In this document: positions 6,576-58,796 of the stretch, in pieces
How the letters are laid out: each line of letters starts with the position of its first letter
How positions within the stretch are numbered: position 1 is the stretch's first letter
Assembly (NCBI GenBank): GCA_041650055.1
Contig: JBAZLV010000004.1
Coordinates: 33,675-97,674, forward strand
Origin: Nitrospirota bacterium
Lineage (GTDB): Bacteria > Nitrospirota > UBA9217
Reading direction: 5' to 3'
Length of the DNA: 64,000 nt
The notes under the pieces: model-generated
The model's database searches: none
What the model was told of the DNA's origin: nothing
The model's input: only the letters and a program-made list of their open reading frames with translations
Position numbers and translations under genes: made by a program

Positions 6576-6576
6576 G

Positions 6577-9473: not shown

Positions 9474-9547
9474 TGTCATCTCCTCATGAATGACCATCTG
9501 AGATTCGTCATGCTCATGAAAATGGGCATCCCGTAACAAGCAAAACT

Positions 9548-9570
9548 GGATTCCCGCTTTCGCGGGAAAG
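9548..9570. repeat. REP-like palindromic element (GGATTCCCGC-tttc-GCGGGAA).
   Basis: Perfect stem-loop in the spacer between convergent/adjacent genes. Same family as the palindromes at 62751-62825. Confidence 0.5.
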
Positions 9571-9600
9571 ACGACTTAGTGGGCTTCATTTAGCCCCTCA

Positions 9601-10983: not shown

Positions 10984-11032
10984 AAGAAGAAACCGCCGCT
11001 CCCCGAAAACAGGAGCGGCAATATCCAGATCA

Positions 11033-12187: not shown

Positions 12188-12245
12188 CATGGGTATCATC
12201 ATAAACCTCCGGGACCGTATAAGAATCTTCCTAAGAGTCTAAAAA

Positions 12246-13097: not shown

Positions 13098-13294
13098 TGC
13101 AATACCTCCTGATAGAGAAACTCGATCCGATTTGTTGATGTCATATGTTTTATTTAAAAAACTTTAATTTTCAAAGATATATGGCACAGATAATAGTAAG
13201 ATCGGAATAGAAGAATGGATTAACATGTGCAATAAACTATACCGAAGTCGATAAAAAATGTCAATGTAAGTAATGACAAAAATGAAGCAAAAAC

Positions 13295-14032: not shown

Positions 14033-14117
14033 AACAGGCTATTTCTCAATATGAAATAGACCGGCGAGCCGTATGCAAGCTCACCGGTCTCTGTAGTTGT
14101 TCACGTTTGCTTATTGC

Positions 14118-15185: not shown

Positions 15186-15237
15186 ACTTCCTCCTATCCA
15201 AATATCAAGATCAATACCATGAAACGCATATCATGAC

Positions 15238-16041
15238 TTACAGATTATTCCAATACCAATAGCAGTAATAGCTAATACTTCCATCTCTAAGACGAGGATA
15301 GGACGGATAATTCTGCCACTTCATGGTATCCCGTCTGTTCCCACAATCAGCTGCACTTGATCCGGTGGCCATCACGGTAGCATCCTGTGACGTGGCCCAG
15401 TCAGAAACTCCATCTTTCCATGACCACTTGATACTATTCTTTTTCTGAAGATTGTCCGCGAAATCTTCACCAACTTCGTCAGTGGTAATGCCATCATACA
15501 GTTTGTCATGACTTCCTACCGCAATACGCAATCCGCCACGAAAAATCGATCCCATCCGTGTCCACATTTTTCCATCATTGAATTTCAGGGTCTCGCAGGA
15601 ATAAGTCGCCAAAATACTTAATCCATACGAATCATCTCCAAGACGCATTTGTGAAGAATTCGCGAGCATGTTTTGATCCCACATTGCCCAGACCGAAATA
15701 TCGCCCCATGCACCACCATGGGTACTTGCATAAAAGAGGTTCACATTATCAAGCGTTCCCGAGTCTCCTCCCTCTTCCCACCACCACTCGGCGCCATGCA
15801 GATTATAATAAAAAACCTTGGTATCCGTATCATCAAGTTCATTATTAAACCAACCGCATCGATTCCACGTATAATCAAGCGTTGTCTGCCAGCCGTTCTG
15901 ATACTCTTTCTGACAACCGGTTCCGAAACGTGCCTTTGCCCAGGCAGTATTAAAATCGGCAGCAACCATATAAAATGCAGCAATAATGATTAGTGTTAAT
16001 AGCTTTACAAACTTTTTACTTTTCATAGAAATCCTCCTCAA
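15238..16041 (-). CDS. Secreted Trp-rich hypothetical protein (speculative His/Cys dyad).
   Basis: Signal peptide 'LLTLIIIAAFYMVAADFNTAWA'. 'FYASTHGG' and 'ATYSCETL' about 40 aa apart, reminiscent of clan-CD His/Cys peptidase spacing; this is unverified. GGAGGA RBS. Confidence 0.4.
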   Translation of the reverse strand: MRRISMKSKKFVKLLTLIIIAAFYMVAADFNTAWAKARFGTGCQKEYQNGWQTTLDYTWNRCGWFNNELDDTDTKVFYYNLHGAEWWWEEGGDSGTLDNVNLFYASTHGGAWGDISVWAMWDQNMLANSSQMRLGDDSYGLSILATYSCETLKFNDGKMWTRMGSIFRGGLRIAVGSHDKLYDGITTDEVGEDFADNLQKKNSIKWSWKDGVSDWATSQDATVMATGSSAADCGNRRDTMKWQNYPSYPRLRDGSISYYCYWYWNNL

Positions 16042-16591
16042 TAAGATAAAATCACTGCTTAATATTGTTTCGGTAAATTGCCTCCTTTCTGGGAAATAGC
16101 AGATATCTGCATTAACCCTCCCTTCTCTCTTTGCCTATGCTAAAGCTCTATTTCGTATTTGGGGTGGTTTACAATGAGAAGTGAATAGTAGTTGCGTTTA
16201 GCAAGAATTAGCCTAAGCCGATCGATCAAGACGTAAAATACTCTCCAGTCATTCATTAATGTCACAAGTTGATAAATTTGTTTACTGAAGGATTAAAGCA
16301 ATAATTTATAACTATTACCGAAAAGAGCTGCACTGTCAATCACCATACATGGGTATTTTATGGGTATATAGAAAGTTGCATTGATTGTTTTTTCAAATAC
16401 TTGGTTGTTGTAGATATGAAAAAATGCGCACTTATAAATATAGGGGACTATAGGATGTCACGTCTTTTTCAGGATACAAACAGATGTCTGATAAGGATGC
16501 CTGATGGGAACTAACAATGCGTTAGAGTATTTTAGAGTATTCAAGTGTCAGAGGGATAGATGCAGAATATCCATTCTGAGTTCACAGTTCA

Positions 16592-16647
16592 GCGTCACCG
16601 AAATTTCTTTCTTTTGCAATATTTCTGTAACAGTCATACGATATAAA
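16592..16647 (+). promoter_or_regulatory. Tandem Pho boxes plus -10 region (psiE promoter).
   Basis: Four 7-mers at exact 11-bp spacing: GCGTCAC-cgaa-ATTTCTT-tctt-TTGCAAT-attt-CTGTAAC. TATAAA about 10 bp downstream. Near-identical copy upstream of pstS. Confidence 0.5.
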
Positions 16648-16694
16648 GATTCTGACAACAATAATAAGAAACGTTCCTGATAGAAAGGAATTCA

Positions 16695-17129
16695 GTGTAT
16701 TACTTTAATAAAATCGCAGACAGCTTAATCAAGCTCATGATTCCCCTGGTTGTCCTCGCCCTTATGATGGGAATTGCGCGGCTCGTTCTCGACTTGCGCA
16801 CGGTGTTCGGAAGCCAGACCATCGCGATAGCCTTTGATATGATGGTGACGAACATCCTTTCGATGTTTATTGTGATTGAACTGCTGCGGAGTGTCATGGA
16901 ATACTTTGCCGTGCATCGTCTGAAGATAACATTTATCATTGATGCCGCGCTGGTCTTTGTGCTCCGTGAAGTGATGGTAGAGCTCTATCGGCATTCGTTG
17001 CAAACAACCTCGATTTTAGCTCTTTCGGCTTTAATCCTCGTAATGGGCTGCCTCCGAACGCTTGCAGTCGTATTTTCACCTGAAAATTATCTGGAAAAGG
17101 AAGAAAAACAATATGGCGGACAGCGTTGA
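16695..17129 (+). CDS. psiE: Phosphate-starvation-inducible membrane protein, PsiE family.
   Basis: 144 aa, four hydrophobic segments, PsiE-like 'VIELLRSVMEYF...ITFIIDAALVFVLREVM'. Preceded by Pho boxes. Confidence 0.55.
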   Translation: MYYFNKIADSLIKLMIPLVVLALMMGIARLVLDLRTVFGSQTIAIAFDMMVTNILSMFIVIELLRSVMEYFAVHRLKITFIIDAALVFVLREVMVELYRHSLQTTSILALSALILVMGCLRTLAVVFSPENYLEKEEKQYGGQR

Positions 17130-38530: not shown

Positions 38531-39046
38531 ATGACCAGAAAGGTCAAAGCGAAAAAGAAACAAACCAAAAAAACAGCAGTCCGCACGGGAGCGAAGAAAC
38601 CTCCTAGAAAACCCGTAAAAAAGAAAGCCCTCAAAAAAACAACAAAAAAGAAACCTGCTAAAAAAGCGGCTAAAAAAGTCACTCGTAAAAAAACCGTAAC
38701 CCGGCCAGCCGAAAAAAAAACAGCTGCACCAAAATCTATCGCCGTTAAATCCGCTCTAGCCGCAGCCACCCACCAACCGGCTGAACCAGGGAGCCAGGAA
38801 GAGGCTGTTGGTACGGTAACGCATTATTACAGCCATTTGCAGGTCGCAGTAATCCAGCTGAACAAGGGCATGATCAGGGTTGGAGATACGATTCATATCA
38901 AAGGAACAACCTCGGATAGCACACAAATTGTGGAATCCATGGAATATGAGCATCAACCCCTCACGGAAGCGGTCGCCGGTCAAAGCGTCGGTCTTCGCGT
39001 GAAAGATATCGTGCGTGAACATGATATCGTCTATATTGTAAAGTAA
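38531..39046 (+). CDS. Histone H1-like lysine-rich DNA-binding protein with a C-terminal EF-Tu-domain-2-like beta-barrel.
   Basis: The N-terminal 85 aa are more than 40% K/A/P/T ('KKKPAKKAAKKVTRKK'). C-terminal 'GTVTHYYSHLQVAVIQLNKGMIRVGDTIHIKG...QSVGLRVKD' resembles the translation-factor beta-barrel. GAGAGGAGA RBS. Confidence 0.5.
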   Translation: MTRKVKAKKKQTKKTAVRTGAKKPPRKPVKKKALKKTTKKKPAKKAAKKVTRKKTVTRPAEKKTAAPKSIAVKSALAAATHQPAEPGSQEEAVGTVTHYYSHLQVAVIQLNKGMIRVGDTIHIKGTTSDSTQIVESMEYEHQPLTEAVAGQSVGLRVKDIVREHDIVYIVK

Positions 39047-39158: not shown

Positions 39159-40859
39159 TTGTGGTACATTTGGAATCAATACACGTCGTCAAGGAGCACT
39201 CGTATACCTCTCATTCACGGAAATACAACCGGTTTAAAACCTGCACAGATTAAAACGATTGAACGATTGTATCGCAGAAAAATGCCGCCTGAAATGCTCA
39301 TATCTCCTGAGGCTGCCCGGCTGCTGGCCGAAGCATCGGCTGCAATCGGGAGACAGATTGGGCTTCTGATTGACCGTTCCGGTTCAGTAAGAAATGTGCT
39401 GATAGGAACAAACAAGGACATTCTTATTCCCGAGCTTTCAGAATATCGGCTCGGCACACGCCGGCTTCGGGGTATCAGGTTCATTCATACGCATCTGAAA
39501 GATCAGCCGCTCAACCAGGAGGATATTACGGATCTTGCGCTCCTCCGGCTGGATATGATCGCCGCGCTGACCATTACAAAAGACGGCCTGCCCAAAACAA
39601 TTTCCGTTGCGTATCTTCTTCCTCCAAACCCTAAAAACGAGTTGTATGAAGTGCTTGCTCCACAGCCGGTTTCACGGCTCAATCTCAAGGTAGATGAATT
39701 CATAGCAGATATTGAGCGCCAGATGGAACGAGCCCGGGCTGCCAGGGAGGTTGCAGGAAAAGACCGGGCAATTCTGGTAAGAGTTTCTAAAAAAAGCAGG
39801 CAGGAACAGGAAGAATCGATTGAAGAGTTAAAGGAACTCGCACGTTCAGATGCCGTCACCGTGCTGGATACGGTTGTTCAGCGTCTTCATGATCTCAATC
39901 CAAAATATCTCATGGGAGAAGGCAAACTCAAGGAATTGATTATCCGTTCGCAACAAGTGGGCGCGGATTTGATCGTTTTTAACCAGGATCTGACCCCTGC
40001 CCAGGTAAAGGCCATCGGTGATATCACTGAAATGCGCGTCATCGACCGCACCCAGCTTATCCTTGATATTTTCGCGCGCCGGGCGCACAGCGCAGACGGA
40101 AAGGTACAGGTCGAGCTTGCGCAACTCCGATATCGGCTCCCCAGGCTCTCAGAACGTTCAACAGCCCTTTCCCGCCTCACGGGCGGAATTGGCGGAAGAG
40201 GTCCCGGAGAAACGCGGCTCGAGATAGACATGCGGCGGGCACGTGATCGGATCAGGAGACTTGAAAAACAGCTTGATGCGCTCGGAAAAGCGCGGGAACA
40301 GCGGCGCGAAAAACGCGTACACAGCGCCATTCCAATTGTCTCGATTGCCGGATATACCAACGCTGGCAAATCCACTCTGTTTAATGCACTCACGAAATCC
40401 GAAGTCACGGCAGAAAATCTTCTTTTTGCCACGCTCGATACCGCAACCCGAAGACTTCGATTCCCCCGCGACCGTGAAGTGGTTATTACGGACACCGTTG
40501 GATTTATTCAGGAACTTCCGAAAGAGCTCCTGGGAGCGTTTCGTGCAACGCTCGATGAAATGCAGGATGCAACCATTATTTTGCATGTGGTTGATATGAG
40601 CACTCCGCGATTCGAGCAACAAATGACGTCAGTTGACCAACTATTGACCGAAATCGGTCTTGATCATATTCCCCGTATTCTCGTATTCAACAAAATTGAC
40701 CTGGTAAATCCGTCGTGGGCGAAAGTAATTGCAGCCCGGTACAGGGGCGTCCTGTGCAGCGCTGTTCATCCGCATACATTCAGACCGCTCCTGCAGGAAA
40801 TTGAAAAAAGTATATGGCCGGAAAACAGGCAACCCAGGCCGGAGCATGCGAAAAAATGA
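39159..40859 (+). CDS. hflX: GTPase HflX (long form with an N-terminal extension; start uncertain, the ORF begins with TTG).
   Basis: G1 'IAGYTNAGKSTLFNALT', G3 'DTVGF', G4 'NKID'. The upstream HflX N-domain begins near 'KDRAILV'. Confidence 0.8.
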   Translation: MWYIWNQYTSSRSTRIPLIHGNTTGLKPAQIKTIERLYRRKMPPEMLISPEAARLLAEASAAIGRQIGLLIDRSGSVRNVLIGTNKDILIPELSEYRLGTRRLRGIRFIHTHLKDQPLNQEDITDLALLRLDMIAALTITKDGLPKTISVAYLLPPNPKNELYEVLAPQPVSRLNLKVDEFIADIERQMERARAAREVAGKDRAILVRVSKKSRQEQEESIEELKELARSDAVTVLDTVVQRLHDLNPKYLMGEGKLKELIIRSQQVGADLIVFNQDLTPAQVKAIGDITEMRVIDRTQLILDIFARRAHSADGKVQVELAQLRYRLPRLSERSTALSRLTGGIGGRGPGETRLEIDMRRARDRIRRLEKQLDALGKAREQRREKRVHSAIPIVSIAGYTNAGKSTLFNALTKSEVTAENLLFATLDTATRRLRFPRDREVVITDTVGFIQELPKELLGAFRATLDEMQDATIILHVVDMSTPRFEQQMTSVDQLLTEIGLDHIPRILVFNKIDLVNPSWAKVIAARYRGVLCSAVHPHTFRPLLQEIEKSIWPENRQPRPEHAKK

Positions 40860-41012
40860 GTTTCCAACAAAATAACGTTTTGACAAATATTGATTTTATA
40901 CCTATAATACGATTGGTTTCATATATAAGCTTCAAACGCCTTTCATTGTCGTGGGAAAAAGAGTGAAGATTAAGATGCACATGGGAAGCTATCCATTGGG
41001 AGGACATTAATT

Positions 41013-42263
41013 ATGGAAACGAGTGAACCGGGGAAAAGCAAGTTCCCGTTGTGGATGCAAATTCTCGTGGGTCTTCTTTTCGGCGTGGTTGTCGGAATGG
41101 TATGGCCCGGGGTTGGAGTAATGTTGCAGCCGATCGGCACTGCCTTTGTCAAGGCGACAAAAATGCTCGTTATGCCTCTTGTATTCACCGCCGTTACGCT
41201 CGGTGTGTATCGCATGGGTTTGGATTTGCGACAGTTGGGAAGGCTTGGAGGAATCGCGTTTCTCTGGTTTTATGTTGCAACCGGAATTTCAATTGCTTTG
41301 GGAATCGGACTGAACCAGGTTTTCCATCCCGCTGCCGGTGTCCCGCTCCTGATAGCCGGAAATATTCCGCAGAATCTTGCCACGTCGGTCGATTGGACCA
41401 AGTTCTTTCTCGATATGATTCCTGATAATATTGTGACCTCTGTTGCACAGCAGAAAATCATCCCGACCCTGTTTTTTTCAGTCTGCTTCGGGCTTGGACT
41501 GGCTGCACTACGGGATACGGCAAAGCCATTCATCAATATTTTGGACATTATTATGCAGGCCATGTTTAAACTTACGTCCGGCGTTATGGCAACAGCGCCC
41601 TTCGCGGTTTCTGCAATCATGGCATGGGTGGTGGCAACCCAGGGAAGCAAACTGATTCTTGCAACCAGCAAACTGATCGGCACACTGTATATTGGTCTTT
41701 TTATTCTTATTCTGTTTTTCTGGCTTATTCTCTGGATCCTGAAGGAAAAACCATTCCAGACAACGAAACTGGTCATGGAACCGCTTTTGATTGCCTTTGC
41801 TACAGCGTCCTCTGAGGTTACCCTGCCAACCCATATGAAAATCCTGCAACAGGCAGGGATACCCAACAAGGTGGTTTCATTCGTTCTTCCGGTCGGATAC
41901 AGCTTTAACCTCGACGGATCAACGCTCTATCAGTCACTTGCCGTCTGCTTTTTGGTGGAAGCGTATGGATTTCATATCGATCTTCCCTCCATTTTGACCA
42001 TTTTGTTTACGACCTTCATTGCGAGTAAGGGAACGGTTGGTATGCCTGGCGCTTCACTCGTCGTGCTCGCGGTGATCCTGACAGCTGTCGGTCTTCCTCT
42101 TGAAGGAATCGCCATGCTGGCGGCATTTGACCGGTTTATGGATATGGGCCGTACCACGCTGAATGTGTTCGGCAATACCATTGCAGCGATCATCATGTAT
42201 CGATTTGGCGGAGACCGGCTTGCTGAAACGGAAACTACTGAAGCAGAGGTAGTAAGCGCATAA
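41013..42263 (+). CDS. Dicarboxylate/amino-acid:cation symporter (DAACS family), paralogue 1.
   Basis: 'KFPLWMQILVGLLFGVVVGM' start. Conserved 'GKGTVGMPGASLVVLAVILTAVGLP' and 'AFDRFMDMGRTTLNVFGN' motifs. Confidence 0.8.
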   Translation: METSEPGKSKFPLWMQILVGLLFGVVVGMVWPGVGVMLQPIGTAFVKATKMLVMPLVFTAVTLGVYRMGLDLRQLGRLGGIAFLWFYVATGISIALGIGLNQVFHPAAGVPLLIAGNIPQNLATSVDWTKFFLDMIPDNIVTSVAQQKIIPTLFFSVCFGLGLAALRDTAKPFINILDIIMQAMFKLTSGVMATAPFAVSAIMAWVVATQGSKLILATSKLIGTLYIGLFILILFFWLILWILKEKPFQTTKLVMEPLLIAFATASSEVTLPTHMKILQQAGIPNKVVSFVLPVGYSFNLDGSTLYQSLAVCFLVEAYGFHIDLPSILTILFTTFIASKGTVGMPGASLVVLAVILTAVGLPLEGIAMLAAFDRFMDMGRTTLNVFGNTIAAIIMYRFGGDRLAETETTEAEVVSA

Positions 42264-42302
42264 TATTCTTGTTTTTAATTAGGAATATCCGATACTAGTA
42301 CA

Positions 42303-42338
42303 AACCGGCTTTTCGTCAGAGAAGCCGGTTTTTTTTAT
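42303..42338 (+). terminator. Rho-independent terminator.
   Basis: AACCGGCTT-ttcgtcagag-AAGCCGGTT followed by TTTTTTT. Confidence 0.7.
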
Positions 42339-42431
42339 TCTGGATAAAGAGCTCTCGCACATGCTACAATTTGATACAGAACCGGATGAAACGGTCTGTC
42401 CAGGCATGTGTCCTAGAGGAGGAATGAGAGA

Positions 42432-43421
42432 ATGGATTTTATCTGTTCCCAATGCAAAAAAACATATCCGATTGACAGCATTCATTATCAGTGCGAATGT
42501 GGAGGACTTTTTCAACTTGGGAAAGAAAAAAACGAAACGGTCAGTACGGCAATCTCTCTGGGAGAAGTTACAACCCCGCTCCTCAAAAGAACCGTGCTGC
42601 AGAGAGATGTTTTTTTGAAAATAGATTATATGAACCCTACCGGATCTTTTAAAGACCGTGGCGCACAGGTGCTCATTAATGCAGTACACGAACGAGGGAT
42701 ACGGGAAGTTGTTGAAGATTCCTCCGGAAATGCAGGTGCCGCCATTGCCGGGTACTGTGCTGCAGCAGGAATACGATGCAATATCTATCTGCCGGAAGAC
42801 ACATCCGCAGGAAAGATCAAGCAGATCAGCGCCTATAAAGCAACCATCGTGAAAGTTCCCGGGACGCGGGCAGATACGTCAAAAGCCGTTTTAAAAGCTG
42901 CTGAATCAACGTATTATGCTTCACATGTGTATAATCCACTTTTCTTTGAAGGTACGAAGTCTCTTGCCTATGAAATCTATGATCAGATCGGAGTTCCCGA
43001 CTACCTTGTCGTTCCGGCCGGGAACGGAACCATGCTGCTTGGCGCGTATATCGGCTTTCAGGAGATTGGAAAGCTTCCGCGAATAATCGCCGTTCAAAGC
43101 AACCGGTGTGCTCCGGTTTTTGCCAAATGGAAGAATCAGCCGCCGGGCGAATGCACACCGACTATTGCAGAAGGCATCGCTATCAAGGAGCCAAAAAGAA
43201 TAGATGAAATGATTAATGCGATACGACAAAGCAACGGAGATGTGATAACGGTTGACGACGATGAGACAAAGAAGGCTCAAGACATTCTTGCGGGAATGGG
43301 TTTTTATATGGAACCGACTTCAGGAGCAGCGGTTGCAGGGATGCTGCGGTACTTTCCGGAAGGATATGATAAAAATCTGACCATTGTCGTTCCGTTAACA
43401 GGCAGTGGATTAAAAAAGTAA
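42432..43421 (+). CDS. Threonine-synthase-like PLP enzyme with an N-terminal zinc ribbon (archaeal-type ThrC homologue).
   Basis: 'CSQCKK...CECGG' ribbon. 'NPTGSFKDRGA' PLP-lysine motif. 'SSGNAGAAIAGYCAAAGI' glycine loop. Confidence 0.65.
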   Translation: MDFICSQCKKTYPIDSIHYQCECGGLFQLGKEKNETVSTAISLGEVTTPLLKRTVLQRDVFLKIDYMNPTGSFKDRGAQVLINAVHERGIREVVEDSSGNAGAAIAGYCAAAGIRCNIYLPEDTSAGKIKQISAYKATIVKVPGTRADTSKAVLKAAESTYYASHVYNPLFFEGTKSLAYEIYDQIGVPDYLVVPAGNGTMLLGAYIGFQEIGKLPRIIAVQSNRCAPVFAKWKNQPPGECTPTIAEGIAIKEPKRIDEMINAIRQSNGDVITVDDDETKKAQDILAGMGFYMEPTSGAAVAGMLRYFPEGYDKNLTIVVPLTGSGLKK

Positions 43422-43468
43422 TATAACCCCTTTCAGGGTGTATGGCATGAACATACAAAAAGGAGCGA

Positions 43469-44452
43469 ATGACGACTGAAATCGTTGTCTTGAACGATGC
43501 GGAAGTGGAAAAACTGATTTCATTTGATGAAACCATGCGCATGATTGAGCATGCGTTCAGTGACTACGCCATGGGGAAAAGCCGCGTGTTCCCTGTTATC
43601 AGGGAAGAGATACCGGCCTACCAGGGTTTATTCGGCATCAAATCCGGGTACCTGGAAACGAGCGATGTCCTGGGTTTCAAAGCCGGCGGCTTTTGGTCGA
43701 ATAATAAAAACAAGGGACTGGCGAATCATCAGTCGGTTATCGTGTTATTCAATCCAGCAACCGGCCAACCCTGCGCGTTTGTTGCAGCCAATTTTGTAAC
43801 ACAAATCCGCACTGCAGCCATCGGCGCTCTTGCGTGCAAATACCTGGCTCGGCCGGATTGCCGCTCCCTCGCAGTCATCGGCACCGGGCAACAAGGAAGA
43901 AATCAGCTTCGTGCAACACTCAAGGTTCTCCCCTCTATCAAGAAAATATATCTCTACGACATCAATATTTCCTCTGCAACAACACTGGCCCGGGATATGG
44001 CTTCCTCGTCCCAGGAAATCCGTGTTGCTGAATCGCCGCAGCAAGCCTGCACAGATGCTGATGTCATTATAACTACCACTTCGAGTTACCAGGCAATTGT
44101 CCTGGATGCATGGATCAAACCGGGAACGCACATCAATGCCATTGGCACGGATACGCGCGGAAAGCAGGAGCTCGATCCAGCCATTTTTTCCCGGGCAATG
44201 GTTATCGTTGATAACAAAAAACAATGCCTCTATCTCGGCGAATGTCAGCATGCCTATACCGCAGGTATTATTACACCGGAATCGATTGATGAGCTTGGTG
44301 AAATCATTACCAAAAGGAAATCCAGGCCAGCGGATCAGAATCAAATTACTATTTTCGATACGACCGGAGTGGCGATCCAGGATCTAGCCACGGCCGGCTA
44401 TGCTTTTGAACAAACGCGCAAAAAAGGCGTTGGCAGCAGAATACATCTCTAA
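43469..44452 (+). CDS. Ornithine cyclodeaminase / mu-crystallin family NAD(P)-dependent enzyme.
   Basis: Rossmann motif 'LAVIGTGQQGRNQL' and OCD-family N-terminus 'FPVIREEIPAYQGLFGIKSGY'. Confidence 0.75.
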   Translation: MTTEIVVLNDAEVEKLISFDETMRMIEHAFSDYAMGKSRVFPVIREEIPAYQGLFGIKSGYLETSDVLGFKAGGFWSNNKNKGLANHQSVIVLFNPATGQPCAFVAANFVTQIRTAAIGALACKYLARPDCRSLAVIGTGQQGRNQLRATLKVLPSIKKIYLYDINISSATTLARDMASSSQEIRVAESPQQACTDADVIITTTSSYQAIVLDAWIKPGTHINAIGTDTRGKQELDPAIFSRAMVIVDNKKQCLYLGECQHAYTAGIITPESIDELGEIITKRKSRPADQNQITIFDTTGVAIQDLATAGYAFEQTRKKGVGSRIHL

Positions 44453-44574
44453 ATGAAAGTGGAGCCCTTCCGGCAGGAGCCGGGGGGATTCCCTGTCGCA
44501 GGGATTGAGCATGAATATCCTTTTACCTGCAATAAAAATAAGCTAGAGCGGGTAGTCCTTTTGAGGAGAAAAAA

Positions 44575-45711
44575 ATGAATCTTTCCGAATTAGAAACCCC
44601 CTGCCTTCTTCTCGACAAGCAAAAACTGGAAAAGAATATCAGCACGATGCATCAAAAATTGGCTCGTCTCAATGTTCCGCTCAGACCGCATGGAAAAACG
44701 GCAAAATGTTTTGAGGTCATCCGTCTTGCCCTCAAAGGACAACCCGGAGGAATCACCGTCTCCACCCTGAAAGAAGCGGAATATTATTTTGATCACGGCA
44801 TAACCGATATCCTGTATGCGGTGGGAATAGCTCCAGTCAAACTGGAACGAATTGCACGTTTACAAAAAAGAGGAGCCGCGATAACAATCATTCTTGATAC
44901 GCTTGAACAGATCCACATGGTGGCAGCAGCCGGCCGAAGGCTGGAAACAACCTTTCCTGCATTGATAGAATTGGACAGTGACGGCCATCGATCAGGCATA
45001 ACGCTCGGTGACCCCCTGCTCCTTGAGCTTGGTCATACGTTGAACAGGCAAGCAGGGGTTGCATTGAAAGGTGTCCTGACACATGCCGGCGGATCCTATG
45101 ATGCCAGATCAACGGATGAAATTCGTTCCATCGCTGTACAAGAGCGGAACGTAGCCGTAGGCTGCGCTCAGCAGCTGCGAAATGCAGGATTACCGTGTCC
45201 GATCGTGAGTGTGGGTTCGACTCCGACTGCTGTTTTTGATGAAGACCTGACCGGCGTAACCGAGGTTCGTGCCGGTGTTTTTATGTTTTACGACTTGTTC
45301 ATGGCAGGTCTGGGGGTTTGTTCCATCGATGATATTGCCCTTTCCGTCCTTGGGTCAGTGATTGGATATCAAAAAAAGAAAGGATGGATCATTACGGATA
45401 CGGGTTGGATGTCGTTATCGCGTGATCGGGGCACTGCCCGTCAGAAACTGGATCAGGGATATGGCCTGGTCTGCCAGCCAAATGGAAGTTTGCTGTCCGA
45501 TTTAATTGTGGGCTCTACGAATCAAGAACACGGAATAATTCAGAATCGTCAGGGAAATGCAATTACGTATGCAAACTATCCCATTGGCAGCATGCTGAGG
45601 ATTCTTCCGAATCATGCATGTGCAACTGCAGCAATGCATGATAGATATTATGTTGTAAACGGTGATGGTCCTGAAGTGATGGATATCTGGTATCGGATAA
45701 ACGGCTGGTAA
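44575..45711 (+). CDS. Alanine-racemase-fold PLP enzyme of the DSD1 / D-threonine aldolase / D-serine dehydratase-like family.
   Basis: 'LRPHGKTAKC' (the PLP-Lys motif of the family). About 380 aa. GAGGAGAAAAAA-ATG. Confidence 0.7.
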   Translation: MNLSELETPCLLLDKQKLEKNISTMHQKLARLNVPLRPHGKTAKCFEVIRLALKGQPGGITVSTLKEAEYYFDHGITDILYAVGIAPVKLERIARLQKRGAAITIILDTLEQIHMVAAAGRRLETTFPALIELDSDGHRSGITLGDPLLLELGHTLNRQAGVALKGVLTHAGGSYDARSTDEIRSIAVQERNVAVGCAQQLRNAGLPCPIVSVGSTPTAVFDEDLTGVTEVRAGVFMFYDLFMAGLGVCSIDDIALSVLGSVIGYQKKKGWIITDTGWMSLSRDRGTARQKLDQGYGLVCQPNGSLLSDLIVGSTNQEHGIIQNRQGNAITYANYPIGSMLRILPNHACATAAMHDRYYVVNGDGPEVMDIWYRINGW

Positions 45712-45725
45712 AGGCTTCTGCCTGG

Positions 45726-45766
45726 AAAAAAAGGCTATGTCCCATATGGGGCATAGCCTTTTTTAT
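45726..45766. terminator. Bidirectional rho-independent terminator between convergent genes.
   Basis: AAAAAAAGGCTATGTCCC-atat-GGGGCATAGCCTTTTTT. Confidence 0.7.
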
Positions 45767-45780
45767 TGCAAGAAAACGTA

Positions 45781-47019
45781 TTACGCAACTACTGCATCGT
45801 CGGTCTGCACGCCCTTACCGCCGAACTTATAGAGCAAGAGTGCGGCACAGGTGTTACCGAACACATTGATCATGGTGCGGCCCATATCCATGAAGCGGTC
45901 AACACCGGCGAGAATGGCTATGGATTCAACCGGAAGACCGATTGAGGTCAGGATCACGGCCAGCACAACCAAGGAAGCTGCAGGAACGTTTGCAGTACCC
46001 TTGTTGGCAACAAGCGTCGTGATCAGGATGGTGATAATTGCGGATGTGTCGAGGTGCAGTCCATAGGCTTCGGCCAGGAAGGTGACAGCCAGTGACTGAT
46101 ACATGGCGGAACCATCAAGGTTGAAGCTGTATCCCAACGGAATAACGAACGATACGACCTTGTTCGGGATTCCCAGCTTGTGCTCGAGGATGTCCATGAG
46201 CACGGGAAGCGTAACTTCAGATGATGCCGTGGTGAAGGCCAGCAACAGCGGCTCTGCCACTATTCTGGTGGTCTGGATTGGCTTCATTTTGATGAGCAAT
46301 AAGAGTATCCAGAAAAGAACCATAACCACGAGGATACCGACATACAGAACACCGATAAGTTTTGCCATACCAAGCAACAGTTTCGCACCCTGGGTTGCGA
46401 TAACCCATGCCATGATACCGGCAACGGCATACGGAGCGGTTGCGATGATACCTGCGGTCAGTTTGAACATTGCCTGCAGAATGCCTTCCATGATTGCAAC
46501 TACCGGCTTGCCGGCTTCTTTTACGAAGGCAAGGCAGAGACCGAAGCAGATCGCGAAGAACAATACAGGAATGATCTTCTGTTGTGCAGCAGCCATGATG
46601 ACATTGTCCGGGATCAGGTTAAGGAAGAACGCTACCCAGTCAACTGAGGTCGCGAGGTTGGCCGGAATGCTGCCACCGGTCGCCTCAAGCGTAATACCCA
46701 TGCCCGGATGAAATACAGCATTCAAAGTAATACCGATAACAACGGCTACGCCTGTGGCAAAATAGAACCAGATAAATGCCAGTGCGCCAAGGCGACCCAA
46801 TGACTTGAGGTCGGCTCCCATTTTGTAAATGCCGAGCGTAACAGCACAGAACACCAGCGGAATCACGATCATTTTAATTGCTTTGATGAACGCGAGTCCG
46901 AGCGGCCGGAGCGCTGCTCCGAATGTCGGCCACAACAACCCGATGATGGTACCGATAACCAAACCAAGTACAATTTGTATCCACAGCGGAAACTTACTTT
47001 TTTTCTTTGATTCTTCCAT
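45781..47019 (-). CDS. DAACS-family symporter, paralogue 2 (inverted relative to paralogue 1).
   Basis: Start at MEESKKKSKFPLWIQI. High similarity to the 41013-42263 product throughout (e.g. 'AFDRFMDMGRT(T/M)(L/I)NVFGN'). Confidence 0.8.
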   Translation of the reverse strand: MEESKKKSKFPLWIQIVLGLVIGTIIGLLWPTFGAALRPLGLAFIKAIKMIVIPLVFCAVTLGIYKMGADLKSLGRLGALAFIWFYFATGVAVVIGITLNAVFHPGMGITLEATGGSIPANLATSVDWVAFFLNLIPDNVIMAAAQQKIIPVLFFAICFGLCLAFVKEAGKPVVAIMEGILQAMFKLTAGIIATAPYAVAGIMAWVIATQGAKLLLGMAKLIGVLYVGILVVMVLFWILLLLIKMKPIQTTRIVAEPLLLAFTTASSEVTLPVLMDILEHKLGIPNKVVSFVIPLGYSFNLDGSAMYQSLAVTFLAEAYGLHLDTSAIITILITTLVANKGTANVPAASLVVLAVILTSIGLPVESIAILAGVDRFMDMGRTMINVFGNTCAALLLYKFGGKGVQTDDAVVA

Positions 47020-47552
47020 TATTATTCCCCCTCCTTTTATTTGAATACACTTCTTAACTTTATCGTTTTTGGATTCGGGCGCTCCAATCGCCGTCCTCGG
47101 CATGGTACGCGCCTAAAAAAACAAATCTACTGCGAAAAACACGAAGCTTGTCTTTTTTACCTCCTTTTCTTTGGATTTATTTAGCACAAAGCTGCATGCG
47201 CAGCTCCGCCGCATAATCGTGGAATACAACCAGTGTTTCTTTCGGTGCGTTTTATTATTATATGAAGACAGAATGAATATATGTATAGATGATTGGTTAC
47301 AGGACGAGGAGTGCCGGAAGGGAAAACAAAATCAGTGATTTTACCGGAAGAATACCAAACCCGGAAAATCTCATGCATAACTCTTTGCAGCATCTTTGAT
47401 ATAGTCTTTTTTGTGCTCATAGCCGCTTTGCGTGCTGCTTATGACATTTTTGGAGCATTGGTAAAAAAGTACTAAATCAGCTCGGTCAGTATAATGATAA
47501 AAGGTGCATTTGTCAAATTTTATTTTTTACCAAAAATGGCAGAAAAAAGAGC

Positions 47553-48941
47553 TTATATGCCGCCGACAGACAACTCCTCCACCCGTAGCGAAGGCGAACC
47601 GATCCTTCCCAGAAACCGGATATCATTCCCAACACCATTTATCTGTTTCATAAGATGAAGCAGATTTCCGGCAATGGTTATTTCACGGACAGGATAGACT
47701 CTGCTGCCTCGTTCGATCCAGAATCCGGTTGCTCCAACGGAAAAATCTCCTGAAATAGAGTTGGCAGTATGCATGCCCATGACTTCGGTCACGAATAAGC
47801 CCTGGTCCAGAGACCCGATCAATTCTTCCAGGGACGGTTTTCCAGGTTCGATATACAAGTTCGTTATGCTGACGCCCGGAATGCCGGCAAATCCCCCCCG
47901 GATCCCGTTTCCTGTGGAGAGAGTGTTATCCCTGTTTGCGGTATACGTATTATAAAGATAGGAAATCAATTTCCCCTTGTCCAGAATGGTCTTCTTTTGC
48001 ATGGGAACCAGCTCGTCGTCTGAAGGTGCGCTACCCAGGCCATGTTCCAGAAGGCCGTTGTCAAGAAGCGTAATTTTGGAAGATGCGACCTGTTGACCGA
48101 GACAGTTTAAAAAAAGCGATTTCTTTTTTTGGACAGTGTCTGCAGCTAAACCGGCTGCAAACAATCCGAGAAATTCCTGCGCTACCGGCGCTTCAAGAAT
48201 TACCGGCACTTTTACGGAGCCGATACGTTTCGCGCCCAACAGGTCGAGCGCCCGCTGCGCGGCCTTGCGCCCTGTTTTTTCAAACGACACGTTCTGATAA
48301 AACCGGTTTATATCGAATTCATAACCTGCCTGCGATTCTCCGCTCTCTTCCGCGACAGTTTCAATGCCGGCAGAACAGAGGGTGCTTTGATAAAAAACCT
48401 GAGCACCTTTCGAATTCAGAATATAGGTCTCAGCATGCACAAAACCAGCCGAGGCCTTGCGAACACGTTTGATCCTGGCATCAACACCAAACGCTTCCCG
48501 CTCGATGGCCATAACACGGTCAATTTTTTCCTGTTCCGCAAGCGACACGATTTCCGGATCATACAAGGAAACGTCCGGATATGGCGTAGAAGGTTTTTCC
48601 GGCAGGGAATGAAATTGATCGGGCTCGGTATTGCGGGCATTCGTTGCTGCGGTTTTCACAAGCGTGGCAATGGCATCATTCGAAAAATCAGTTGTGAAGG
48701 CAAAGCCCATGTGGGATCCGATCAGAACACGAAGACCTGCGCCTCTGTCTTCTGCGCGGTCGAATGCTTCGACCTTTTGGTCTTTTACTTCAATGGATGT
48801 GGAGCGAGAATGCCGCAGAAAAACTTCCGCAGCATCCACGTTGAGATCCTGCGAGCGGGAAAGGATTGTTTCAGCCTGCTGTTTGATAGCGGCATGTTGC
48901 CTGACACGTCCCATGGAAAATGCTCCCGGATTGGCTGACAT
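47553..48941 (-). CDS. TldD/PmbA-family metallopeptidase.
   Basis: About 450 aa with the family pattern 'GAGLRVLIGSHMGFAFT' and 'GFWIERG'. Confidence 0.8.
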   Translation of the reverse strand: MSANPGAFSMGRVRQHAAIKQQAETILSRSQDLNVDAAEVFLRHSRSTSIEVKDQKVEAFDRAEDRGAGLRVLIGSHMGFAFTTDFSNDAIATLVKTAATNARNTEPDQFHSLPEKPSTPYPDVSLYDPEIVSLAEQEKIDRVMAIEREAFGVDARIKRVRKASAGFVHAETYILNSKGAQVFYQSTLCSAGIETVAEESGESQAGYEFDINRFYQNVSFEKTGRKAAQRALDLLGAKRIGSVKVPVILEAPVAQEFLGLFAAGLAADTVQKKKSLFLNCLGQQVASSKITLLDNGLLEHGLGSAPSDDELVPMQKKTILDKGKLISYLYNTYTANRDNTLSTGNGIRGGFAGIPGVSITNLYIEPGKPSLEELIGSLDQGLFVTEVMGMHTANSISGDFSVGATGFWIERGSRVYPVREITIAGNLLHLMKQINGVGNDIRFLGRIGSPSLRVEELSVGGI

Positions 48942-49531: not shown

Positions 49532-49560
49532 TTGCAAAAATTTGCAAATTCAGCTATGAT
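49532..49560 (+). promoter_or_regulatory. Sigma-70-like promoter (TTGCAA-17-TATGAT) for the hfq genes.
   Basis: Read directly: TTGCAA, a 17-nt spacer, then TATGAT. Placement implies a short or leaderless 5' end for the downstream ORF. Confidence 0.4.
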
Positions 49561-49567
49561 TTTTTTA

Positions 49568-50041
49568 ATGGAAGTTCGCAAGGAAGCATCTCAACAGACA
49601 GTGGAATTGCAGTTCTTACAACAAGCCCAATCAAGCAAGGTCAAGCTTCATATCGGCCACATGAACAAGAACGAGCAGGAAGGTATCGTCAAGGATATCG
49701 GCAGATATGAGCTCACCATCAATGACAACGGCAGAATCATCACCCTTCTGAAACAGGAAATTTCATGCATCACTGCCCCCTATCCGCTGATTCCCATATC
49801 AAAAGCAACAGCGCCCGCAGGATATGAGCCTGCTGAAGCACCAGCGGGATCAAAACCGAATATCCAGCAGGAATTTCTCGATAAAGCCATCAAGGAAAAC
49901 CAGGTGCTTACGCTCTATCTGATGAACGGCCAACGGTTTAAGGCGGTGATTACCGGATATGATAATTTCACCATTCTTTTACGGGACAACGCCAAACAGC
50001 ATCTGTACTACAAGCATGCAATAACAACGATCAATCGATAA
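49568..50041 (+). CDS. hfq: Tandem-Sm (double Hfq-like) RNA chaperone. Start uncertain.
   Basis: Domain 2 'QQEFLDKAIKENQVLTLYLMNGQRFKAVITGYDNFTILLRDNAKQHLYYKHAITTI' is a canonical Hfq Sm1/Sm2. Domain 1 'LQFLQQAQSSKVKLHIGHMNKNEQEGIVKDIGRYELTINDNGRIITLLKQEISCI' is a divergent Sm fold. Confidence 0.55.
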   Translation: MEVRKEASQQTVELQFLQQAQSSKVKLHIGHMNKNEQEGIVKDIGRYELTINDNGRIITLLKQEISCITAPYPLIPISKATAPAGYEPAEAPAGSKPNIQQEFLDKAIKENQVLTLYLMNGQRFKAVITGYDNFTILLRDNAKQHLYYKHAITTINR

Positions 50042-50049: not shown

Positions 50050-50433
50050 ATGGAAGGAAACCTCCTCGACACCATCCTGCATACACATCTCGAGAATAAG
50101 ACAACAGTGGCGATAACGCTCCACAATAAAATCCGCTTAACCGGGACGGTCAAGGCGTTCGACAGCTACATTCTTATTCTTGAAAGCCAAAAAATGGAGC
50201 TCGTGTATCGCCATGCAATTTCCAGCATCACTGCACTTGACCAGGTTCCCGTGATCACCGTTCGGGAACCGGCAATAAAAAAAGCTGTTCCTCCCCCGTC
50301 ACCAGTTACTCGTCGAAAATCCGAACCTTCGGCAGCAGTGCTGCTCTCTCCTTTTCGTGAAAACCGCAGCATCAATAGTTCCATGAAAGACGGATTATTA
50401 AAATGGATGCAGGAACAAAAGGCGGCAAAATAG
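50050..50433 (+). CDS. hfq: Hfq-like RNA chaperone, third Sm module, with a C-terminal tail.
   Basis: 'LLDTILHTHLENKTTVAITLHNKIRLTGTVKAFDSYILILESQKMELVYRHAISSI'. Confidence 0.65.
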   Translation: MEGNLLDTILHTHLENKTTVAITLHNKIRLTGTVKAFDSYILILESQKMELVYRHAISSITALDQVPVITVREPAIKKAVPPPSPVTRRKSEPSAAVLLSPFRENRSINSSMKDGLLKWMQEQKAAK

Positions 50434-56055: not shown

Positions 56056-58443
56056 TCATATCCTCATGAACCAATTTTTTTGACGCCATTTATTTTTCAA
56101 AATAAACTCTTGGGGATTAAGAATCAAATAAACTTTGTTTTTGAATATCCAGTTCCGTTCGTTAAGTTTTTTATTTAGCGATTGGAGATTATCTATCACT
56201 ACATTTGCACCGCCGTCTGTCACTCCAATTAGATATTGGTTGTTGAATAGTGATTCTAAAAGACGCTCAACTTCGGCGCTTTTCATGCCAGCAGAAATAG
56301 CTATATTTTTAAATTTTGAATACTCACAAAGTGTTTCGTAATAGTAACTTTTTTGCAGTTCGTGAAGTATGTTTTCTATTTTGGGGAATTCTGCTTTAAC
56401 TTCTGCAATCATATTATTGTGCAGAAATATCGTATACGCCTCGATAGCATAAATAAAATCATCATCGAGCACTTTAGCATGATCATTGTTGACGGCTGAT
56501 TCAAATAATTTACTTAAAATGTAAATAATATCACGTGGCCGCGCTACTGCTAATTTTTTAATCAGATCAAATGGATGTTTATCTTTCGAAAAATCAAAGT
56601 ATTCTTTCCATACTTCTTCTATTTCATGGGATGTAGTTAAATTTAAAATGTATTTAAACCTCTCCTCCACAAGTTTTTTTAAGAGATTTCCATGATGTTC
56701 CCATTTGATTTCATATGATCTTATTGTCAATTTGTCTGGTTCCCTTGTGCGTTGAAGAATATAATCATATATATCTTTTCTTAACATTATGATCGTGTTA
56801 GTTTTGATTTGTTTATCTTGTTCTTTCGATAACAACTCTCTTGCAATTTTATCACTGTATTCTAATAAGCCAAGGATCATATCAGACTGAACAGTCAAGT
56901 TATTGCGGGAATCCCAGCTTTTGTCCAGATTATCGGCAAGGATATTAAGCGTATAATATTTCTCCTTCTTAAAATATAGACGTAACACCTGAATAAGCTC
57001 GGTCAAATAACTTTTATATAATTCATCTAGCATTGCGGGATTTTCGACGATACTTTTTCCGTTCAAAGCCTCATGAATTTTTTTGATTGCACCAAAAAAG
57101 TTTAATGACAAAAGATCTCGGTGGTTACCTCTAAATTCGAGTATTTTCTCTTCTTCTGGTAAAAGAGTAGTATGCTCTTTTTGAATAATTTTGTTTTCTA
57201 TGGCCAGAAGCAGTTTGGAAAGAATGACAAACTTCCAAACTGAATAAAATAAAGAGCGCTTTGAAATTTCATTTCTATATACTGATGATAATTCAACATT
57301 TTCCAGCAGCTCATCAGAGTCTGGTTTTAATATAACATTATAGTTGATTGCCTCCTTCTCAAGATCTTTCTCAAGCTTAATAAATAATGCTGACTTACCT
57401 GATCCTTTTCTTCCTACAAATACAGAAAGCGACCTCGACGCTGCTTTTTTGTACGCCTCAATCTCTACGAAATAATGAAGAAGTGATTCTTTTTCTTCTT
57501 CAGCAATTTCGCAGCCGATACCAAGTTTAAGAAGATTATATTTTTTATCAACTACTATAGCATCTGCTTCTGGCACTCTAACTACCTGATGCTTTGAAGA
57601 CACAGATCCAAGTTGAGTTCGGATCCAGTCTTCTGTTTTTATAACGCATTCCTCTGAACTCGTATATTCCACTAAAATATCGTCATAATCGATTGGTGCA
57701 TTAAAAGGAGCTGGGGCGACCAGCAATACATTTTTGTCTAGACCACAACCAATGCCGGCGTAGAAAGAATATTCTGCGTTGTGTCTTAGATTATCGGTGG
57801 TACTCTTTCCATGTAGGTGAATAACTATATTTTTAACTTTATATAATGAATGTATATACCAACTGAGAGTTTGATATTCGACTTCACTTGTATCATCATG
57901 AATTAAGCGATACTGTGAGGATGTCAGGAATTCTGTCAAGTCAAGAGAGGCTTGCGTGTCGATTTTACTAGAAATATAAAAAATATCATGAGTATCTATT
58001 TCAGCTTCGTCGAGTTTTATTAAAGAAGACAGAAGAACCGTTTGAACTCTATCCTTGGTTTGCAGTTCCGTTTGAATATGTTTATAGTTCGTGTATTGCT
58101 GATAGCCTATATTTTTTAAGAAGCGACATGCAGAATATCTTTCTTTAGCGCCTTCTATCGATGTATTTATAAAAACTAATAATTTCTTTTTCTTTCCTAT
58201 TGCATACCCAAGCTCAAAAAGCACATTATGATTGAGATATGTCAAGTCACATGCAAATAATTCACTGCTATCAATATTCTCGAGCACTGTACGATTTATT
58301 ATTTTCCCCCCTACTCGCAGGTCTTCCCATGACATCGCAGTGAATCCTCTTTGGTGCGTATTGTATTCAATAATCGCTTTTTTAATAGCATCTATTGTGT
58401 CATGATGCCCGCTTTCATACGCAAAGAATATTTTTTTCATCAT
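56056..58443 (-). CDS. Multidomain P-loop NTPase with two N-terminal nucleoside-2-deoxyribosyltransferase/TIR-like (SLOG-type) domains. Candidate defence protein.
   Basis: Domain 1 'KKIFFAYESGHH...NVLFELGYAIGKKKKLLVF', domain 2 'IFYISSKID...AEYSFYAGIGCGLDKNVLLVA', Walker A 'VFVGRKGSGKSALF', putative Walker B 'YTLNILADNLD', 'LAVARPRDIIYIL' sensor-like helix, long helical C-terminus. Start at MMKKIFF after GGAG. Confidence 0.6.
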   Translation of the reverse strand: MMKKIFFAYESGHHDTIDAIKKAIIEYNTHQRGFTAMSWEDLRVGGKIINRTVLENIDSSELFACDLTYLNHNVLFELGYAIGKKKKLLVFINTSIEGAKERYSACRFLKNIGYQQYTNYKHIQTELQTKDRVQTVLLSSLIKLDEAEIDTHDIFYISSKIDTQASLDLTEFLTSSQYRLIHDDTSEVEYQTLSWYIHSLYKVKNIVIHLHGKSTTDNLRHNAEYSFYAGIGCGLDKNVLLVAPAPFNAPIDYDDILVEYTSSEECVIKTEDWIRTQLGSVSSKHQVVRVPEADAIVVDKKYNLLKLGIGCEIAEEEKESLLHYFVEIEAYKKAASRSLSVFVGRKGSGKSALFIKLEKDLEKEAINYNVILKPDSDELLENVELSSVYRNEISKRSLFYSVWKFVILSKLLLAIENKIIQKEHTTLLPEEEKILEFRGNHRDLLSLNFFGAIKKIHEALNGKSIVENPAMLDELYKSYLTELIQVLRLYFKKEKYYTLNILADNLDKSWDSRNNLTVQSDMILGLLEYSDKIARELLSKEQDKQIKTNTIIMLRKDIYDYILQRTREPDKLTIRSYEIKWEHHGNLLKKLVEERFKYILNLTTSHEIEEVWKEYFDFSKDKHPFDLIKKLAVARPRDIIYILSKLFESAVNNDHAKVLDDDFIYAIEAYTIFLHNNMIAEVKAEFPKIENILHELQKSYYYETLCEYSKFKNIAISAGMKSAEVERLLESLFNNQYLIGVTDGGANVVIDNLQSLNKKLNERNWIFKNKVYLILNPQEFILKNKWRQKNWFMRI

Positions 58444-58796
58444 AACATGTTCTCCATTATTAAAACTAAAATCCAGGCGATGGCAAGGGGACATCCTATA
58501 GTCCCTCTGTCTCAACAACACACTCTCCAACAAAAACATATTACTCTCAGGGCTAACTGGCTCAGCTGCTTTAATTAAATTGTTTTATCGGATCTGGATA
58601 TATAGATAGATATTTGAAAATTATCGTAGGCAAAAGGAAGACTATCGTTTGTTGCGTTTTTATTATACGAATATGAGATGTGATGTCAAGGAGTTAAACA
58701 GGATACAGGATTCTAGAAACCGGATGCCAGATTCCGGATACCGGATGATGGATACAAAGCAAAACGTCTGATCATGAAACGTGATTCAAGAACACA

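Follow-up and report, generated by a model that had tools for sequence, protein, structure and literature searches.

A Nitrospirota gene island with two aspartate-class symporters and a threonine synthase-derived protein: a candidate route from 3-hydroxyaspartate to L-aspartate

Organization of the island

The subject of this study is a five-gene island at positions 41,013 to 47,019 of a 64,000-nucleotide stretch of contig JBAZLV010000004.1 from a Nitrospirota bacterium (the whole stretch is hereafter called the window), which we discuss as a candidate unit for the uptake and conversion of a substituted aspartate-type amino acid. A reading made earlier from the sequence alone had placed three enzyme genes between two inverted symporter genes, and both the open reading frames (ORFs), all five of which are present in the window, and their Pfam domains agree with it. 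The first gene, DAACS1 (41013-42263, + strand), encodes a GltP/GltPh-type acidic amino-acid:cation symporter of 416 amino acids with an SDF domain (368 bits). It is followed on the same strand by a gene for a 329 amino acid protein of the PALP family of fold-type-II pyridoxal phosphate (PLP) enzymes (42432-43421; hereafter ThrC-like), which starts with a CxxC...CxC arrangement, by one for a BhcD-like, NAD(P)-dependent enzyme of the OCD/mu-crystallin family of 327 amino acids (43469-44452; hereafter OCD), assigned from NCBIfam, PDB and tree comparisons, and by one for a fold-type-III PLP enzyme of 378 amino acids with the Pfam domains Ala_racemase_N and D-ser_dehydrat (44575-45711; hereafter DSD1). 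The second symporter gene, DAACS2 (45781-47019, - strand), encodes 412 amino acids from an ATG at 47019 (SDF, 379 bits). Housekeeping genes bound the island on both sides, namely hflX (39159-40859) and a pmbA/tldD-type gene (47553-48941).

A sigma-70-like promoter with a 12/12 consensus match lies upstream of DAACS1 (40880-40908, + strand), and an intrinsic terminator with a 13-bp stem and a T run behind it closes this unit (42302-42331, + strand). A weak promoter-like site (42341-42370, + strand; 9/12 with an extended -10 TG, a consensus match only) precedes the three enzyme genes, which are separated by 47 nt (ThrC-like/OCD) and 122 nt (OCD/DSD1) and each have a Shine-Dalgarno site. The terminator scan of the island found no terminator between these three genes, and a palindromic bidirectional terminator (45727-45764) lies between them and the convergent DAACS2. 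Since terminators occur only after DAACS1 and at 45727-45764, we predict three transcription units rather than five: DAACS1, a ThrC-like-OCD-DSD1 operon, and DAACS2. The sequence-only reading had given each unit its own terminator, which holds for the strong one after DAACS1 and for the bidirectional one but finds no counterpart among the enzyme genes.

The DAACS2 frame is open back to 47103. Its start is most likely the ATG at 47019, because an AAGGAGG sequence lies upstream of it and the tblastn alignment with DAACS1 opens there, and the end point of 47019 proposed earlier for the island agrees with this start. A sigma-70-like promoter (47488-47516, - strand; 11/12) was found about 470 nt upstream of DAACS2. 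The leader between this gene and the pmbA/tldD-like gene (47020-47552, - strand) is about 470-530 nt long and holds a possible ORF of about 80 amino acids; it has no Rfam match, and no riboswitch or leader element of Rfam was found anywhere in 40500-47700. The OCD-DSD1 spacer contains a G+C-rich hairpin (GGGATTCCCTG..CAGGGATT, at 44465-44510) that lacks a T tract; it may serve in the processing or stability of the mRNA and is not a canonical terminator.

The enzymes and carriers of the island

The ThrC-like protein carries an N-terminal four-cysteine ribbon (C5, C8, C21 and C23) and a PLP lysine, K74, within the motif PTGSFKDRG, and is 33-36% identical to the threonine synthases (ThrCs) of solved structure. 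Its AlphaFold2 model (pLDDT 92) is predicted to have the fold-type-II fold of ThrC with the PLP lysine; the top Foldseek matches of this model were all ThrCs (TM 0.74-0.80), followed by TdcB and then serine racemase, and no closer solved relative was found. The nearest NCBIfam models are likewise the short Zn-ribbon 'threonine synthase' models, yet the protein falls under all the ThrC equivalog cut-offs: 147 bits against 167 for TIGR00260, 277 against 301 for PRK06450, and 260 against 358 for PRK08329. The canonical ThrC encoded at 9-1202 of the same window, which the sequence-only reading had recognized as bona fide, scores 216 bits with TIGR00260, above its cut-off.

When we aligned the protein with four solved ThrCs, we found SSGNA and H-V-Y-N-P-L-F where they have STGNT and N-S-x-N-P-x-R, so that A101, H165, V166 and F171 stand in place of Thr, Asn, Ser and Arg. 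The ThrC of the window retains all four residues (STGDT and NSMNSLR). We take the corresponding T88, N154, S155 and R160 of T. thermophilus ThrC to be phosphate ligands, an assignment that reportedly goes back to Omi et al. 2003 and Murakawa et al. 2011. Independently of these presumed roles, 102 ThrC-like ORFs taken from the fetched loci were sorted by signature, and two clean groups emerged: 23 canonical archaeal Zn-ribbon ThrCs with STGNT/NSxNPxR and 71 proteins with SSGN[A/G]/H...F. The scan of the genome collection used the generic pattern PTGSFKDRG and returned at least 600 matches, mostly relatives of 30-50% identity, which served as a control set for signature and neighbourhood. Run exhaustively against 1.84 billion cluster representatives (50% identity), phmmer yielded 839 clusters at E≤1e-30; among the best 150 of them, the SSGN[A/G]-type loop and the His occurred in 150 and the canonical signature in none. 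The clade marked by this signature is broad and includes both bacteria and archaea.

These criteria place the ThrC-like protein outside the threonine synthases, as had been suspected on first reading. That it might nevertheless be a second, archaeal-type threonine synthase is suggested by its fold and by PRK06450 being its nearest model, but given the failed cut-offs, the change at four of four signature positions, the thrC gene already present at 9-1202, and a profile of neighbouring genes (described below) that occurs around none of the 23 canonical ThrCs, we consider this scarcely credible and have rejected it. The cysteate synthase model TIGR03844 was not among the 25 best models of the protein, all of which score at least 50.7 bits, and therefore lies far under its cut-off of 324.9. 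We found no published description of the SSGN[A/G]/H...F clade in the literature searched; within the libraries and literature covered, the clade appears uncharacterised, and its members are usually annotated as 'threonine synthase'. For the reasons developed in the next section we propose that the protein is an imine-forming beta-eliminase.

The closest structural relative of DSD1 is the D-threo-3-hydroxyaspartate dehydratase of Delftia sp. HT23 (EC 4.3.1.27; PDB 3wqc), which matches it over its full length (E=1e-110, about 48% identity). DSD1 has the same architecture as this enzyme, and its PLP lysine (PHGKTAK) and metal-ligand His and Cys (ILPNHACAT) are conserved; the latter two align at the positions altered in the Delftia H351A and C353A mutant structures (4pb3 and 3wqg). 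Chicken D-serine dehydratase is a more distant match (3anu, E=3e-63). The sequence-only reading had taken the gene for a beta-hydroxyaspartate or D-threonine aldolase type, an assignment that we abandoned: the D-threonine aldolases of PDB match at about 1e-25 to 1e-28 and BhcC at 1.5e-25, and the NCBIfam model of BhcC gives 132 bits against a cut-off of 690. We therefore regard DSD1 as a putative hydroxyaspartate dehydratase homologue, whose specificity is not settled by an identity of about 48%.

In contrast to this choice, the earlier comparison of the OCD-like gene with iminosuccinate reductase was borne out. Its best NCBIfam model is that of BhcD (303 bits, under the cut-off of 500), and its best PDB match is BhcD (6rqa, E=8e-66), ahead of an archaeal alanine dehydrogenase (8e-55). 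The motifs KAGGxWxNN..NHQS, GTDT[RK]GKQELDP and GECQHA are common to OCD and 6rqa and missing from alanine dehydrogenase 1omo, and a neighbour-joining tree places BhcD within the OCD clade and alanine dehydrogenase outside it. Among annotated plasmids, the best matches of OCD are bhcD genes. We propose that OCD acts as an imino-acid (iminosuccinate) reductase.

A fold-type-II PLP enzyme paired with an OCD-family enzyme is also the arrangement of SbnA and SbnB, and the sequence-only reading had considered that the island might make a diamino acid from O-phosphoserine and glutamate by the same logic. We rejected this on the scores (75 bits against 350 for SbnA, 132 against 327 for SbnB). Moreover, the chemistry needs O-phosphoserine, and the ThrC-like protein differs at all four of the presumed phosphate-ligand positions; the genes found alongside it and its relatives are for RidA, regulators of catabolism and carriers for uptake, with none for siderophores or nonribosomal peptide synthetases. 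Diamino-acid synthesis is therefore very improbable here.

The two symporters are paralogues (61% identity), as had been noted, and appear to belong to the Glu/Asp type. DAACS1 has its best PDB match in 9bgz (E=5e-85), listed as an 'Aspartate transporter', and the TM8 motif DMARTTVN of that protein aligns with DMGRTTLN in DAACS1 and DMGRTMIN in DAACS2. In GltPh, the Asp of this motif binds the amino group of the substrate and the Arg binds its side-chain carboxylate. Neither protein reached the cut-offs for GltP (269 and 277 bits against 638) or DctA (276 and 298 against 513), and their SstT-type scores are low (72-87 bits). The motif thus identifies both as predicted carriers of the aspartate class, that is, of acidic amino acids, and carriers of this type would fit the earlier suggestion that the island takes up an unusual amino acid, either a hydroxy- or a D-amino acid.

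The symporters also bear on the possibility of a generic serine/threonine set, in which the ThrC-like protein would be an L-serine/L-threonine dehydratase, DSD1 a D-serine dehydratase, and OCD an imine reductase resembling alanine (or 2-aminobutyrate) dehydrogenase. The DSD1 family does include D-serine dehydratases, RidA, which accompanies several relatives of the ThrC-like gene, is a classical partner of Ser/Thr dehydratases, and threonine deamination by ThrC itself has been reported (PMC12172450). However, the symporters have the Arg motif for an acidic side chain and score poorly as SstT, D-serine dehydratase is a much more distant match of DSD1 than is the hydroxyaspartate enzyme, and the neighbours in related loci are aspA, asparaginase and di- or tricarboxylate carriers. 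We consider such a set improbable.

Gene neighbourhoods of relatives and the proposed route

The ThrC-like and OCD proteins each match NCBI entries of 'Nitrospirota bacterium' at 100%. Close homologues of the ThrC-like protein (60-76% identical) were found in Negativicutes, Synergistota and other Nitrospirota, and about 115 loci were examined for gene association. It had been asked beforehand whether the three enzyme genes occur together elsewhere; the full triad was seen only in the window, but each of its pairs (ThrC-like with OCD, ThrC-like with DSD1, and DSD1 with OCD) recurs in several phyla. The ThrC-like gene is directly followed by OCD in L095/L096, L099/L100 and L107. One of them, L095, from a second Nitrospirota metagenome-assembled genome (MAG), has the order GntR, cuyA, DAACS, cuyB, aspA, ThrC-like, OCD and a truncated DAACS remnant, with aspA directly upstream of the ThrC-like-OCD pair and with cuyA and cuyB above their cut-offs (525 bits against 450 and 239 against 190). 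In L099/L100, a YheO-like regulator gene precedes ThrC-like and OCD, while the Sporomusa rhizae locus (L107, CP156925) reads DSD1 ... YheO-like, ThrC-like, OCD, amidase, ThrC-like orthologue, amidohydrolase, type II asparaginase, RidA. The DSD1-type gene is directly followed by OCD without any ThrC-like gene in two loci (L108 and L109, one of them a Clostridiaceae contig), beside TctABC and CitMHS carriers.

In other loci RidA takes the place of OCD. A YheO-like regulator gene is followed by ThrC-like, RidA and, further on, cuyA in Pelosinus and a Firmicutes MAG; YheO-like, RidA and ThrC-like stand together on plasmids of Priestia megaterium and Selenomonas ruminantium and, with a DSD1-type gene 64% identical to that of the window, in Desulfoluna; and Haloterrigena has DAACS, DSD1, ThrC-like and RidA. 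ThrC-like is adjacent to a YheO-like gene in Streptomyces and to DSD1 in Falsiroseomonas and Roseomonas, Natrinema has DSD1, asparaginase and ThrC-like, and in Novosphingobium a DTHA-like gene overlaps ridA. In a hidden Markov model census, RidA, OCD, DSD1, CuyA, YheO or DAACS genes were found within 5 kb of 15 of the 71 clade members, as opposed to none of the 23 canonical ThrCs. A metagenome scan with the single ThrC-like protein returned 9 loci only, none of them informative.

Several of these loci have peculiarities of their own. The S. rhizae region (2147-16865 of CP156925) carries two different ThrC-clade genes, an FmdA-like amidase, a DUF5058 gene and interruptions by insertion sequence elements, in an organism that can be cultivated. 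In L095 the counterpart of DAACS2 (10880-11610, - strand) is a 5'-truncated remnant, and the locus has no DSD1 gene; in L099 (9035-10017) and L100 (7802-8784) OCD is split into ORFs of 149 and 175 amino acids. We see these as signs of decay in related loci. An OCD homologue (P0163, 65% identical) and a DSD1 homologue (P0249, 68% identical) both have an ENA contig of exactly 26,406 bp as their longest one and so probably lie on the same contig, which would be a further OCD-DSD1 locus and possibly a second triad. In Thermosinus carboxydivorans (L003, 8001-9973; L004, 246-1591) the stop codon of ThrC-like overlaps the start of a gene for a truncated, 327 amino acid class-Ic aminoacyl-tRNA-synthetase-like protein (tRNA-synt_1c, GluQRS-like). 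Relatives 48-49% identical to the ThrC-like protein lie between pirin and Amidohydro_1 genes, followed by a NiaR-like regulator with a 3H domain, in L087 (3735-6641) and L086 (5774-7551).

Because either RidA or a BhcD-like OCD follows the ThrC-like gene, the two seeming interchangeable, we infer that the ThrC-like enzyme is most plausibly a beta-eliminase that releases an enamine or imine. OCD pairs with either ThrC-like or DSD1-type genes, and both enzymes would therefore probably give the same imino acid. An alternative is that the ThrC-like protein is a racemase or epimerase feeding a D-specific lyase of the DSD1 (or CuyA) type, after the logic of CuyB and CuyA, with OCD or RidA handling the imine made by the D-lyase. 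Clade members do recur beside D-specific beta-eliminases of either type, serine racemase is the next structural match after ThrC and TdcB, and the Ser of the SSGN loop is placed where the second catalytic base of fold-type-II serine racemase presumably lies. On the other hand, Priestia, Selenomonas and L099 have ThrC-like genes with RidA or OCD but no D-lyase gene inside 5 kb, which argues that the ThrC-like enzyme itself releases the imine. Furthermore, the Delftia enzyme presumably accepts the D-threo and L-erythro isomers, both 3R, and inversion at C-alpha would not make the other two isomers its substrates. We regard a racemase as rather improbable.

Taking the ThrC-like protein as an eliminase, we propose that the island imports a beta-substituted amino acid of the aspartate type and converts it to the plain L-amino acid, most likely 3-hydroxyaspartate to L-aspartate; we hold this tentatively, at a little short of an even chance. 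The two aspartate-class symporters would import the substrate. Two PLP beta-eliminases of unrelated folds, the DSD1-type homologue of D-threo-3-hydroxyaspartate dehydratase and the ThrC-derived enzyme, changed at what we take to be the phosphate ligands of ThrC, would each strip the beta-substituent from a different stereoisomer to give an enamine/imine, 2-iminosuccinate, so that the two lyases might between them cover different stereoisomers. The BhcD-like OCD would then use NAD(P)H to reduce this imine, giving L-aspartate, with nitrogen retained and reducing equivalents consumed, an outcome that would suit an anaerobe. We infer the substrate, and with it the reductive direction of the OCD reaction, from the similarity of DSD1 to hydroxyaspartate dehydratase, the BhcD-like motifs of OCD, the aspartate class of the carriers, and the aspA and asparaginase genes in related loci. 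These links to the aspartate skeleton comprise aspA in L095, asparaginase in the Sporomusa and Natrinema clusters, and DAACS in the Haloterrigena cluster.

A competing proposal starts from L-cysteate, which the symporters would import and the ThrC-like protein would cleave as an L-cysteate sulfo-lyase, leaving DSD1 for the D-form or a hydroxy analogue; OCD would turn 2-aminoacrylate/2-iminopropanoate into L-alanine, and the sulfite would be respired. The Nitrospirota MAG discussed above has ThrC-like-OCD in one block with cuyA, cuyB and a related DAACS, Pelosinus-type loci place cuyA within 1-2 kb of ThrC-like-RidA, and cysteate synthase is a relative of ThrC. The cysteate pathway of Bilophila wadsworthia, which consists of an SDF carrier, CuyB, CuyA and RidA, likewise employs a carrier of this family and RidA (PMC11193023). 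However, tblastn found neither cuyA nor cuyB in the window, DSD1 keeps the metal site that activates a hydroxyl group, OCD has the BhcD-specific motifs, and a C4 skeleton is indicated by the aspA and asparaginase genes nearby in related loci. A Bilophila 'threonine synthase', which may or may not belong to the SSGN[A/G] clade, was found to be without cysteate sulfo-lyase activity (PMC11193023). On balance we consider cysteate an unlikely substrate.

Several observations weigh against the proposed route nonetheless. OCD is globally 39% identical to BhcD and 37% to alanine dehydrogenase, so nearly as similar to the one as to the other, and as it lies under the BhcD cut-off, the imine that it reduces could be 2-iminopropanoate. 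The DAACS between cuyA and cuyB in L095 is about 70% identical to both symporters of the window, and the cuyA of Pelosinus lies 1 kb from ThrC-like-RidA; both point to cysteate. In the ThrC-like protein the changed residues A101, V166 and F171, together with F172, are largely hydrophobic and appear a poor fit for a second carboxylate, and the phosphate-ligand roles against which these changes are read are our assumption. The exact triad is confined to the window among the loci examined. Finally, 56 of the 71 clade members have no neighbour of the kinds counted in the census, and five close homologues (63-70% identity) are solitary, so the ThrC-derived clade may be functionally heterogeneous or housekeeping.

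The large ThrC-derived clade is to our mind the more interesting lead. It could represent an unrecognised enzyme class, descended from a threonine synthase whose phosphate pocket was lost, that acts as beta-eliminases (or racemases) on non-phosphorylated, beta-substituted amino acids; with a BhcD-like reductase, it would provide a reductive, nitrogen-keeping route from hydroxy- or sulfo-amino acids to the plain L-amino acid in anaerobic bacteria, with a RidA-linked version across bacteria and haloarchaea. We put this forward as a conjecture that has some prospect of being right but may well fail. Hundreds of clusters of the clade are annotated as 'threonine synthase', and their signature and neighbours suggest that this is a misannotation of PLP enzymes that form imines in catabolism and are controlled by YheO-like regulators. 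3-Hydroxyaspartate is found in siderophores, in lipopeptides and in proteins with EGF domains. If the proposed conversion is correct, anaerobes would have a dehydratase/imine-reductase route from this compound to aspartate built from parts that are not orthologous to those of the beta-hydroxyaspartate cycle, and the two lyases would be a candidate stereocomplementary pair for obtaining optically pure hydroxyaspartates.

Elsewhere in the window we noted further features. Upstream of the island, a gene at 38531-39046 (+ strand) encodes a 171 amino acid protein in which a basic N-terminus rich in Lys, Ala and Pro is fused to a barrel resembling domain 2 of EF-Tu, and the adjacent HflX (39159-40859, + strand; 566 amino acids) has an N-terminal extension of about 215 amino acids before its GTP-bdg_N domain. 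Downstream, two tandem genes (49532-50041 and 50050-50433) encode Hfq domains, which in the first occupies only residues 111-167 after a long N-terminal extension. An ORF of 827 amino acids without a Pfam match (56056-58539, - strand) lies in the part of the window lowest in G+C (34%, against about 46%), a region that may be foreign DNA.

Comparison with known systems

SbnA/SbnB and EutB/EutC likewise combine a PLP enzyme of fold type II with an NAD(P) enzyme of the OCD family, although substrates and contexts differ. The reaction proposed for EutB and EutC is the reductive removal of a hydroxyl group of hydroxyectoine. The island proteins are far under the cut-offs for both (62 bits against 413 for EutB and 203 against 472 for EutC). 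With ThrC and cysteate synthase, the ThrC-like protein shares the fold, the PLP lysine and the archaeal-type N-terminal Zn ribbon, but its T/N/S/R residues are changed to A/H/V/F, and the genes near it and its relatives are for RidA, a putative imine reductase and regulators instead of being thr genes.

The Delftia dehydratase has the same two-domain DSD1 architecture, PLP lysine and His/Cys ligands as the island enzyme. The difference lies in the operon, where the island gene stands with that of a putative imine reductase, so that the product would become aspartate and not be hydrolysed to oxaloacetate. The Bilophila cysteate pathway likewise joins a carrier of the SDF/DAACS type to a PLP-dependent beta-eliminase specific for D-substrates and to a protein that handles the imine, and its genes are linked to ThrC-like-OCD in the Nitrospirota MAG and to ThrC-like-RidA in Pelosinus; the eliminases of the island are, however, of different families, and CuyA and CuyB have no tblastn match anywhere in the window.

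The closest parallel is with the beta-hydroxyaspartate cycle of Paracoccus denitrificans, in which the PLP dehydratase BhcB yields iminosuccinate and the OCD-family reductase BhcD converts it to L-aspartate. Sequence and motifs both make BhcD the closest relative of the island OCD, yet the identity between the two is limited, and no orthologues of BhcA, BhcB or BhcC are present at the island (76 bits against 550 for BhcB with the ThrC-like protein, and a BhcC score for DSD1 far below its cut-off, as given above). The putative dehydratases of the island are instead non-orthologous, one of the DSD1 type and one ThrC-derived, and they would serve an anaerobe in uptake and catabolism and not in glycolate assimilation. 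As judged from the encoded proteins, the island would thus resemble in its working the part of the beta-hydroxyaspartate cycle formed by BhcB and BhcD, without being a member of that cycle.

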